Assembly (NCBI GenBank): GCA_037447195.1 | Contig: JBBIHD010000011.1 | Coordinates: 1 to 24,941, forward strand | Reading direction: 5' to 3' | From: Nitrospirota bacterium | GTDB taxonomy: Bacteria; Nitrospirota; UBA9217 | DNA length: 24,941 nucleotides | Part shown: positions 6,586 through 8,784 of the stretch, one piece after another | Layout: each line of letters begins with the position of its first letter | Position numbering within the stretch: position 1 is the first letter of the stretch | The notes under the pieces: generated by a model | Told to the model about the DNA's origin: nothing | Database searches by the model: none | What the model saw: the letters and a program-made list of their open reading frames with translations, nothing else | Translations under genes and position numbers: made by a program

Positions 6586-7218
6586 CTATTTCAGCTTGCC
6601 ATATCGCTCCGCCTCTGCTCGAGATCTCTCATAATTAGGCGAGTCTCCGGTAGCCTGGTAAACCTCTGCCAGATGACCATAGGCCTCAGAGAGGTATTCC
6701 GGCCGGTCCTGAGGAAGGGTCCTTACAGACTCTTCGAGCGCCTCTAACGCTTCACTGATCCGCCCTTGGCGGTAAAGAACCACGCCGAGCGTGTCAAGGT
6801 AGTAAGGCCGCTGCTCCGGAGTGCGCCGTATCGCTTCCCTGGCAAGCTGTTCAGCTTTCCTCAGTTGATCTCCCTGTTCGAGATACACCCATGCAAGATT
6901 GTTATAGCTGTTCCCGTTCCCGGGATCCAGGGATATGGCTTTGAGATAGGCCTTTTCAGCCTCTTTATGTGCTCCTGTGCGGAAGGACAGGTCGCCTATC
7001 ATGAGCCAGGTGAGCGGGCTGTTGCTGCCGCCTCTGACTGCAGCGCGGTATTGCTGCAGCGCTAACTGCAGTTTGCCCTGCGACTCATAGACCTGCCCCA
7101 GGCGGACATGCTCTTCCGCCGTAAGCGGATCATTCAGAACGATGATCCTCGGGAGCGAGCAGCTGGTGGCAGCAGCCAGTGAGGTCAGGATCAGAATATG
7201 CAGAATGAATTTTGTCAT
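6586..7218 (-). CDS. TPR-repeat lipoprotein
   Basis: Signal with lipobox-like AATSC. TPR helices: LGQVYESQGKLQLALQQYRAA, IGDLSFRTG..EAEKAYLKAISLDP, YNNLAWVY, YLDTLGVVLYRQG. Confidence 0.85.
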   Translation of the reverse strand: MTKFILHILILTSLAAATSCSLPRIIVLNDPLTAEEHVRLGQVYESQGKLQLALQQYRAAVRGGSNSPLTWLMIGDLSFRTGAHKEAEKAYLKAISLDPGNGNSYNNLAWVYLEQGDQLRKAEQLAREAIRRTPEQRPYYLDTLGVVLYRQGRISEALEALEESVRTLPQDRPEYLSEAYGHLAEVYQATGDSPNYERSRAEAERYGKLK

Positions 7219-7264
7219 GCTATATCATATCTGGAAAGGACAGAAAAGTCGCCAGGCTGCGGCA

Positions 7265-7900
7265 TTATCCGGCACCCTGCGCCGCAACAGGAGCGCGTGC
7301 CGGTGTAGGGTGCACTACAAGCATCCAGTTGCCGGTACGGCCCCAGGATTTTTGAAAGCTATCATAGGACATCAGCCGGTTCCGTGTAACGCCGTCATGC
7401 ATGATCATGACACGGTTGACATCGTCAAAGCCGATCGCGACCACGTAATGGGGCCGCCGGTAGAGGCCGCTGCCCAGGTCGAGCAGGCAGATGACCGGCC
7501 GACCGCTACGGATCTCAGCGTGCAGTCGCTCAAGGGTGCCCGCTGCGGCTTCGGTAGAAAATCCCGACGACCGGGCGAAATTTTCCATGTCAGGAGGAAG
7601 GGTTCCCCCGAGGGCCGGCGTCATGATGCGCGACCCGATCTCGTCAAGCGGGACGACGGCGCCATAAAATGCCAGGACGCCGGAAAGGGCGGCCGGACCG
7701 CAGTCGTCCGCACCCTGGCGCACAAAGGGCACGCCGCTGATATAGTGTCCGCGGGCATCGAGGCCCGGCGGCAATGAAGACAAGTCCCGAGGCGCGCATC
7801 CCACAGCCAGGAGCGTTGCAGCAACGATAATGATGAACAAAAAAAAACCGCAAACAGCCCCTTGTCTGTTTGCGGACCAACTCGTTTCCAGTGCGGCCAT
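7265..7900 (-). CDS. Stand-alone C39-like cysteine peptidase, lipoprotein (PA2778-like)
   Basis: Lipobox LAVGC; VPFVRQGADDCGPAAL (Gln and catalytic Cys), HYVVAIGFD (His), MHDG (Asp). Its ATG overlaps the upstream TAA (TAATG). Confidence 0.85.
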   Translation of the reverse strand: MAALETSWSANRQGAVCGFFLFIIIVAATLLAVGCAPRDLSSLPPGLDARGHYISGVPFVRQGADDCGPAALSGVLAFYGAVVPLDEIGSRIMTPALGGTLPPDMENFARSSGFSTEAAAGTLERLHAEIRSGRPVICLLDLGSGLYRRPHYVVAIGFDDVNRVMIMHDGVTRNRLMSYDSFQKSWGRTGNWMLVVHPTPARAPVAAQGAG

Positions 7901-8325
7901 TATCTGCGCTTCACCTCAATGCGGCCTTCAAGCAGATAGATAAGCAGCACAACAAGCAGTGCGATGATGAGCAGTCCGACAACGGCTCCCACGGCATCGC
8001 CGCCGGCCTGGAGCGAGTCCAGGTTCGATGCCAGGTGATGAAGTTGTTCATCAGAAAGACTGTTCAACTTCGCCGCGGCCTCGTCGGCCGAAAGCCCGTA
8101 GTCCATGAGGCGCTGCTGGATCACCTTGGATTCGAGCACCGTCTGAACCTTGCCCAGGTCCGCGATCCGCTCTTGCGACGACACACCCGTGGCCGCTGCG
8201 CCCTGCGGATCCACGGCCAGGTACATGGCCTCTGCCGGACCGGCAAAGGTCGAGATCACGAGCAGGGCGGCTGCGAGGTACACTGCCAATGGTTTGGCAT
8301 AGAAACGCTTCAGCATAGGGTTCAT
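7900..8325 (-). CDS. PA2779-like protein, paralog B (signal peptide, helical domain, AGG, C-terminal TM helix)
   Basis: RBS AAGGAGG; signal ending GPAEA; QRLMDYGLS..LSDEQLHHLASNLDSLQAGG then a strongly hydrophobic helix and basic tail. The family name is from recall. Confidence 0.8.
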   Translation of the reverse strand: MNPMLKRFYAKPLAVYLAAALLVISTFAGPAEAMYLAVDPQGAAATGVSSQERIADLGKVQTVLESKVIQQRLMDYGLSADEAAAKLNSLSDEQLHHLASNLDSLQAGGDAVGAVVGLLIIALLVVLLIYLLEGRIEVKRR

Positions 8326-8360
8326 AACGGGAAACCTCCTTTTTGATGGAAGCAGCGCGT

Positions 8361-8747
8361 TTATTTTCTGATGATGACCTGGTGGTCTGTCGCCTGCAGC
8401 ACGACGATAACAACGATCGCGACAAGCAGCAGGAAGATCACTGCTCCAATGCCGTCGCCGCCTGCCTGGAGCGAATCCATGTTTGCAGCAAGCTGATGAA
8501 TCTGCTGGTCGGAAAGGCTGTTGATCTTCAGCAGGGCCTCTTCGGCAGAAAGGCCGAGATCCATGAGGCGTTGCGAAACGAGCGAGGATTCGAGGGCGGA
8601 CTGCACCGCAGCAAGGTCTTCAGCGCGGCTGGTCCGGGTCGGTTCGACGGGCAGGAACATTGCCCAGCCCTGGGCGGGCAGGGCCAGCAGAAAGACCGCC
8701 ATGGCGAGGTAGAGTGAAAGGCCTTTTACCGCAAAGCGCTGCAGCAT
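8361..8747 (-). CDS. PA2779-like protein, paralog A
   Basis: Start re-called to MLQRF (8747) behind AAGGAG; signal ending QGWA; QRLMDLGLS..LSDQQIHQLAANMDSLQAGG then a hydrophobic helix; 128 aa. Confidence 0.8.
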   Translation of the reverse strand: MLQRFAVKGLSLYLAMAVFLLALPAQGWAMFLPVEPTRTSRAEDLAAVQSALESSLVSQRLMDLGLSAEEALLKINSLSDQQIHQLAANMDSLQAGGDGIGAVIFLLLVAIVVIVVLQATDHQVIIRK

Positions 8748-8784
8748 GGGACAGCTCCTTTCGGGGACCGGCAAAACTGCCGGC

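Follow-up and report, generated by a model that had tools for sequence, protein, structure and literature searches.

A putative periplasmic substrate-protease module in Nitrospirota: PA2779-family proteins, a stand-alone C39 peptidase, and a TPR lipoprotein

A four-gene envelope cassette with a split PA2778

We analyzed a four-gene cassette in a 24,941-nucleotide (nt) stretch of DNA from a Nitrospirota bacterium (GenBank assembly GCA_037447195.1, contig JBBIHD010000011.1, positions 1 to 24,941; hereafter the window), the source assembly of which is 86% complete and comprises 383 contigs. The cassette encodes two paralogous small proteins of the PA2779 family (A and B), a stand-alone C39 cysteine peptidase lipoprotein, and a TPR lipoprotein (Table 1). 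As had been stated in an earlier reading of the sequence alone (the original prediction), the four genes are co-oriented, all of their products carry export signals (two Sec-type signal peptides and two lipoboxes), and the gene for paralog B is coupled to that for the peptidase by a TAATG overlap; each of these features can be read in the sequence. In the overlap (7902-7898), the stop codon of paralog B and the start codon of the peptidase have one base in common, and a stop/start overlap between these two genes (TAATG or ATGA) is also kept in relatives. The genes for paralogs A and B are preceded by Shine-Dalgarno sequences (AGGAG, 8 nt upstream of A, and GGAGG upstream of B).

Table 1. Features of the cassette and of its products, in positions of the window
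Feature	Positions	Strand	Extent	Basis
PA2779-family paralog A	8361..8747	(-)	128 amino acids (aa), ATG at 8747	NF033919 and DUF6627 matches
Paralog A, G96 and G97	8457-8462			
Paralog A, predicted cytoplasmic tail	8361-8384			
PA2779-family paralog B	7900..8325	(-)	141 aa	NF033919 and DUF6627 matches
Paralog B, G108 and G109	7999-8004			
Paralog B, predicted cytoplasmic tail	7900-7926			
Stand-alone C39 cysteine peptidase lipoprotein	7265..7900	(-)	211 aa	Peptidase_C39 and Peptidase_C39_2 matches
Terminator-like element within the peptidase open reading frame	7839..7875	(-)	codons 9-21	terminator scan
Stem of this element	7875-7848		10 bp	
U-run of this element	7847-7839		U9	
Peptidase, lipobox Cys35	7796-7798			
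Peptidase, predicted catalytic Cys67	7700-7702			
Peptidase, predicted catalytic His151	7448-7450			
TPR lipoprotein	6586..7218	(-)	210 aa	TPR_2 match and synteny
TPR protein, lipobox Cys20	7159-7161			

Family models bear out the proposal that this layout corresponds to the PA2779/PA2778 pair (NF033919/NF033920), in that both small proteins pass NF033919 (A, 80.6 bits; B, 83.2 bits; cut-off, 40 bits) as well as DUF6627 (PF20332; 42.8 and 35 bits, respectively; cut-off, 27 bits), and the peptidase and the TPR protein match different parts of NF033920. The likeness to PA2778 holds for the family and not for the single-gene form. NF033920 is an equivalog model of 255 positions with a cut-off of 150 bits over its C39 and TPR parts, and canonical PA2778 is one protein in which the C39 domain is fused to about 100 aa of TPR. 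In the window, the peptidase reaches 116 bits over model positions 2 to 151 only, which is under the cut-off, and the TPR protein reaches 43.5 bits over positions 156 to 254; three one-piece relatives within Nitrospirota reach about 330 bits. Because the two genes match separate halves of the model, we regard them as a split variant of PA2778, which by the rule of the model is not the equivalog. This split form is usual in Nitrospirota, and it is not an assembly fault, because a separate TPR ortholog follows the C39 gene in 21 of the 24 loci where the peptidase adjoins PA2779, with a lipobox on each of the two parts. The cassette thus shares with the known pair the order of small protein and then peptidase, along with the signal peptides, and departs from it in having two genes with two lipoboxes, a TPR region of about 190 aa, and a presumed substrate gene present as two types, A and B, of old origin. 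NCBIfam and Pfam already list the gene pair itself; what is added here is a phyletic test, a three-chain structural model, and evidence for an internal terminator.

Presumed substrates, peptidase, and candidate receptor

The two paralogs have a common layout. In A, a Sec-type signal ending in AQGWA|M (cut after A29, as read from the sequence) is followed by a 68-aa helical ectodomain (M30-G97) with the motif LQAGG|D, a transmembrane helix, and the tail HQVIIRK. In B, a signal ending in PAEA|M (cut after A33, likewise read from the sequence) precedes a 76-aa ectodomain (M34-G109), the same motif, a transmembrane helix, and the tail GRIEVKRR, so that both proteins end in a hydrophobic helix of about 20 residues and a short basic tail. 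They are 47% identical to each other, and the order of A-type upstream of B-type is conserved in 12 related loci; the duplication is therefore old, with both copies maintained.

Relatives of PA2779-B form 1,101 clusters at 50% identity (E ≤ 0.001), from which 124 representatives at 50% identity were aligned (paralog B numbering). Their best-kept segment, I/L-D-x-L-x-A-G-G-D, lies immediately N-terminal of the membrane helix; 110 of the 124 have Gly at position 108, 110 have Gly at position 109, and 91 have Asp at position 110. The other best-kept positions are the Ala at the signal peptidase site, a set of polar residues (R53, D56, E65, K67, R72, E82, D92, and H96), and L73 and G77. Hydrophobic residues are conserved at positions -5, -8, -12, and -15 from the predicted cut, and the segment that leads up to Gly-Gly appears to be an amphipathic helix resembling a double-glycine leader, with its proximal end shifted by one residue. 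Related loci show the variants GA, GS, or AG at the motif, and orphan copies of the gene retain it; C39 enzymes accept small-residue pairs of just these kinds. A-type copies with Gly-Ala or Gly-Ser before the Asp were seen at loci L011, L020, L022, L024, L030, L035, L040, L043, and L046; Gly-Gly is kept in B-type copies, and the A copy of the window also has Gly-Gly. The tails follow a family-wide pattern, basic-basic-(I/V)3-basic (e.g., HRIIIK), which may act as a topology signal or as a tag by which a membrane stub is recognized for disposal. Comparison of the PA2779 profile with solved structures returned only noise (E ≥ 0.037), a search of the ESM Atlas gave no lead beyond the family itself, and 90 aligned members compared with Pfam matched DUF6627 and, weakly and driven by the transmembrane helix, other entries, and nothing else.

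The peptidase matches Peptidase_C39 (PF03412; 42 bits; cut-off, 22 bits) and Peptidase_C39_2 (40.5 bits), and the solved proteins closest to it in profile comparison are LahT150, ComA-PEP, and PCAT1, all three of them Gly-Gly proteases (E of about 1e-10). Enzymes of this kind are classically the cytoplasmic leader-cutting domains of bacteriocin exporters. The cassette protein has the lipobox LAVG-C35, and either a lipobox or a Sec signal is found on every homolog examined. Cys35 and the predicted catalytic Cys67 and His151 are invariant across 18 aligned homologs, and Gln62 is present in the window protein. Asp169, the third C39 residue (an Asp about 16 positions after the His), is found in the window and in close relatives, and Ser takes its place in many family members. 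The cassette gene is the single peptidase match in its genome. In the genus labeled g46 (loci L050, L051, and L052; genomes G062 and G102), the peptidase has a plain Sec signal, lacks a lipobox, and is unlinked to the other genes. At another locus (L012:6434-7166), the peptidase gene is present as two overlapping frames in one ENA assembly and is intact in a near-identical contig (L013), so that the split is probably a sequencing or assembly frameshift.

The TPR protein (TPR_2, 83.7 bits) has the lipobox ATS-C20, directly after which come a conserved segment, SLPRIIxLxDPLxxEEH, and then about four to five TPR repeats. Among its orthologs, C20, D30, L32, E36, N106, N107, and W110 are invariant. 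In a six-frame search of the genome, it is barely set apart by NF033920 (38 bits versus 35.2 bits for the next unrelated TPR protein), and we assign it to the module on account of its fixed position after the peptidase, the family-specific conserved residues, and the co-fold described below. In g46, the TPR lipoprotein gene lies immediately upstream of the PA2779 gene and overlaps it.

We surveyed 201 genomes from across Nitrospirota, which, being related, are not independent, with the peptidase sought by its own model (A1). Both PA2779 and the peptidase were found in 78 genomes, neither in 121, PA2779 only in none, and a peptidase-like match only in 2. The original prediction would have been undermined by homologs of the substrates commonly occurring without the peptidase, and such cases number 0 of the 78 genomes with PA2779. 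One of the two peptidase-only genomes (G200) has a lone intact C39 lipoprotein (L049:2701-3321) flanked by neither a PA2779 nor a TPR gene; in the other (G134), the sole match is weak and lies within a frame of 722 aa. Presence is patchy even within genera (1/5 genomes in g3, 7/10 in g7, and 1/2 in g11), and the PA2779 and peptidase families are gained and lost together. Their adjacency, as seen in the window, is common (24 of 30 sampled loci) and not obligatory, since 6 of the 30 PA2779 loci lie away from the peptidase. In each of the five genomes checked among those with unlinked PA2779, exactly one peptidase occurs elsewhere. In genus g53, the C39 and TPR genes are paired and PA2779 is on another contig, and in g46, the TPR and PA2779 genes are paired and the peptidase is about 0.8 Mb distant. 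As the parts are retained together in these genomes though unlinked, all three persist through rearrangement. Across 25 genomes of the family to which the window belongs, there are 77 PA2779 matches and about 27 peptidase matches, a copy ratio of about 3:1 that fits many substrates per one enzyme. A search for related loci with a single protein returned only close relatives from Nitrospirota (Nitrospirota/Nitrospiria metagenome-assembled genomes).

Three chains were co-folded, namely, the peptidase (residues 36-211) and the TPR protein (21-210) in their mature forms and PA2779-B from residue 34 to residue 122, a construct that lacks most of the membrane helix. Three runs gave a co-fold score of 0.82, for which calibration is rough, against 0.01 for the best of the three controls, and swapping the TPR protein for an unrelated protein lowered the score from 0.82 to 0.01. 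On the peptidase side, the confidently predicted interface consists of residues 64-68 (with Cys67), 146-152 (with His151), and 187-192, against which PA2779-B places residues 103-119 (G108, G109, and D110 among them). PA2779 residues 57-101 are modeled against the concave face of the TPR protein, and TPR residues 21-32 are modeled with the mature PA2779 N terminus (34-42), both of these segments being conserved. Co-folding had been suggested as a check of the original prediction; in the model, the Gly-Gly segment occupies the active site of the C39 enzyme and the ectodomain is held by the TPR protein, in a manner that fits the scaffold role proposed there for the latter. The model thereby supports the proposed binding and geometry, as predicted structure can, and not catalysis.

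A terminator-like hairpin in the peptidase gene and the genomic setting

Within the signal peptide codons of the peptidase lies a GC-rich hairpin that begins 26 nt after the start codon and is followed by a U-run encoding the FFLF (Phe/Leu) residues of the signal peptide (dG, -15.9 kcal/mol; z, -3.2). An equivalent hairpin and U-run are present 43 to 64 nt into the C39 open reading frame at 19 related loci that span several Nitrospirota families (L011, L013, L016, L020, L023-L025, L027-L030, L034, L037, L038, L041, L042, L044, L046, and L047); in 18 of them, z ranges from -2.7 to -8.4. The position is conserved and the stems of different lineages have unrelated sequences, often with an A-tract before the stem and a U-tract behind it. 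A strict scanner found matches in 17 of 35 peptidase-start windows, the background across all fetched DNA being 0.087 per 150 nt, and three further hairpins escaped it through misanchoring. When an eight-pair helix was defined by hand on a crude alignment, 71.5% of the cells were paired, a value as high as which was reached in 0 of 500 shuffles, and in seven of the eight pairs both partners have changed, i.e., there is covariation. RNAalifold, given the 5' ends of the peptidase genes as aligned by MAFFT, returned no consensus structure, because the stems vary in length and register.

Where no PA2779 gene precedes the peptidase gene (five cases), the hairpin is absent. Peptidases with it have an unconserved N-terminal extension of 17 to 20 aa, and those without it have short, ordinary signal peptides. 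A peptidase start downstream of the hairpin was considered and rejected, as later starts leave no charged n-region and no ribosome-binding site, and the overlap is conserved. Judging by these sequence features, the hairpin is probably a partial terminator that keeps expression of the peptidase and the TPR protein below that of the substrates, and read-through may depend on ribosome reinitiation at the overlapping start codon.

In the window, the cassette is flanked upstream by tsf, pyrH, and frr and downstream by genes for a rhodanese-like exported protein and a YeiH-like membrane protein and by atpB. The neighborhood varies in relatives, the cassette being found behind frr at L013 and between era and nadA at L011; the link to the frr operon is therefore local and lineage specific and lies outside the module. 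The 37 nt from the frr stop to the start of PA2779-A (8748-8784) contain a short hairpin (ccggca/tgccgg) with no U-run. At the other end of the cassette, a weak hairpin (7264-7250) lies behind the stop codon of the peptidase, and no obvious Shine-Dalgarno sequence is seen before the ATG of the TPR gene (7219-7264).

A candidate mechanism, its alternatives, and known counterparts

We consider it more likely than not that the cassette encodes a dedicated periplasmic substrate-protease module, in which a TPR receptor holds the PA2779 proteins, the C39 enzyme cuts them after Gly-Gly as predicted, and a soluble domain is freed. PA2779-A and -B would be exported by Sec, lose their signal peptides, and stay tethered in the inner membrane by the C-terminal helix, with the N terminus outside and the basic tail inside. 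The TPR lipoprotein would then grip the three-helix ectodomain, and its post-lipobox segment would grip the mature PA2779 N terminus, whereby the juxtamembrane (L/I)-x-x-L-x-A-G-G|D would be presented to Cys67/His151 of the C39 lipoprotein. We infer a cut after Gly-Gly, which would yield a soluble domain of 68 aa (A) or 76 aa (B) and a membrane stub of 31 to 32 aa. The hairpin and U-run would end most transcripts after the substrate genes, such that substrate is made in excess over the enzyme and the TPR protein.

Several points weigh against this mechanism. The Gly-Gly docking may be in part a memory, on the side of the structure-prediction model, of solved C39-leader complexes, and 0.82 is a mark that 58 of 80 solved complexes and 2 of 110 mismatched pairs attain, a calibration that is rough for a co-fold with its own alignments and three chains. 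Neither lipoprotein has Asp at +2, and the E. coli +2 rule, which may not hold in Nitrospirota, would place both in the outer membrane, remote from the inner-membrane site. The pair had been described in the original prediction as functionally uncharacterized, and our literature search on DUF6627, PF20332, NF033919, and NF033920 likewise found no paper, no functional study, and no experiment on any member. Nor were any RNA sequencing runs with the locus found, its carriers being DNA runs of subsurface metagenomes only. Two further points, the variability across the family of the third catalytic residue (Asp in ComA and LahT) and the genome G200, which has no PA2779 match genome-wide at E ≤ 1e-5 and is the sole such case among 79 clear peptidase carriers, also favor a different arrangement, namely, a stable, uncleaved complex, in which PA2779 would be an anchor, a regulator, or a pseudosubstrate in the active site and the true substrates would be other envelope proteins. 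The co-fold gives a binding geometry and not catalysis, and the large TPR-ectodomain interface, with the conserved polar residues listed above, would suit such a complex as well. However, the copy ratio, the orphan PA2779 genes, and the embedded terminator speak against a fixed stoichiometry, and with substrate in excess both in gene copies and through the attenuator, a relation of enzyme and substrate fits better than a fixed complex. The Cys/His dyad is also invariant, and the motif tolerates only small residues of the kind that C39 enzymes cut after. We accordingly rate the stable complex as unlikely.

We give a similarly low probability to sorting of the kind performed by sortases, in which Gly-Gly, the transmembrane helix, and the basic tail would be a sorting signal, the peptidase would form a thioester with Gly109, and the ectodomain, in place of simple hydrolysis, would be transferred to an envelope acceptor such as phospholipid, peptidoglycan, or a further protein or would be passed on for export across the outer membrane. 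Cysteine peptidases do act through an acyl-enzyme intermediate, and both the tail and the helix of PA2779 are conserved. The tripartite shape is that of the GlyGly-CTERM, PEP-CTERM, and LPXTG signals (PMC6219818), and GlyGly-CTERM/rhombosortase in particular combines a small-residue motif, a transmembrane helix, and a basic cluster on a Sec-exported protein with a dedicated protease (PMC3237569, PMC6219818). Rhombosortase, however, is an intramembrane serine protease with many unrelated cargoes, whereas here we find a cysteine peptidase with a soluble domain and a cargo that is always the one small domain of a single family of small proteins. No GlyGly-CTERM or other sorting-signal model of NCBIfam matched the cassette proteins at E ≤ 0.1, rhombosortase itself not having been searched for, and no acceptor is indicated by the sequence. 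To our knowledge, moreover, no C39 enzyme has transpeptidase activity. Were this improbable reading to hold, the cassette would be a new C-terminal sorting system, with a TPR-guided periplasmic C39 enzyme acting as a transpeptidase or handing over to an outer-membrane exporter, and hence a cysteine-protease counterpart of rhombosortase/exosortase.

Antagonism, with the peptidase as a toxin (e.g., an effector of a type VI secretion system [T6SS]) and the small protein as its immunity protein, or with the hydrophobic, cationic 31- to 32-aa peptide as a bacteriocin-like product, seems to us very improbable. It draws on a transposon screen in P. aeruginosa that listed PA2778 among possible H1-T6SS toxins, the neighboring small gene having lost insertions, with no follow-up (bioRxiv 10.1101/733030), and on the resemblance of the motif to the end of a double-glycine leader. 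The lipobox or Sec signal on all of the peptidases examined, however, is unsuited to T6SS delivery (T6SS genes were not searched for), the "core" peptide would arise within the producer's own membrane, the cassette is placed behind housekeeping genes, and the PADLOC defense-system models matched none of the three core proteins. The original prediction that this is not a classical bacteriocin cluster stands: no ATP-binding cassette (ABC) transporter, immunity gene, or modifying enzyme adjoins the cassette in the gene neighborhood of the window, and the precursors carry Sec signals. For the same reasons, it does not fall among double-glycine leader systems with peptidase-containing ABC transporters, given that PA2779 proteins have Sec signals, the motif is near the C terminus, and the neighborhood holds no ABC exporter.

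Comparison with known C39 enzymes helps to define what would be distinctive about the substrate-protease module. With ComA, LahT150, and PCAT1 (PDB codes 3k8u, 6mpz, and 4ry2), the cassette peptidase shares the C39 fold family by sequence and the conserved Gln, Cys, and His, and its presumed PA2779 substrate likewise has an amphipathic helix ending in Gly-Gly. In contrast to these domains, which are cytoplasmic, fused to exporters, and trim an N-terminal leader, it is a predicted periplasmic lipoprotein with no transporter, and the Gly-Gly of the cassette lies between a Sec-exported domain and a membrane helix, with hydrophobic residues at -5/-8 as opposed to -4/-7 in leaders. FapD of the Pseudomonas Fap amyloid system, the closest analogue that has been studied and one with which we compare it by description and not by sequence, is an active periplasmic C39 peptidase that requires its active-site Cys for function and is similarly a Sec-exported, stand-alone enzyme (PMC5557850); it differs in being a member of the fapA-F operon, in needing the FapF barrel, and in having no TPR partner or PA2779-like protein.

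The sequence evidence thus suggests that the same C39 unit has been placed across the membrane, with its own TPR receptor and a private, tail-anchored substrate. The module is widespread: its small protein falls into about 1,100 clusters (50% identity), and about 40% of the sampled Nitrospirota genomes carry the set. The predictions that follow are sharp, as they name a defined scissile bond, a catalytic Cys, and a helper. If the terminator in the signal-peptide codons is real, it would amount to gene-dosage control inside a coding sequence, and if cleavage is real, the module would introduce a new class of regulated proteolysis in the envelope or of protein sorting.

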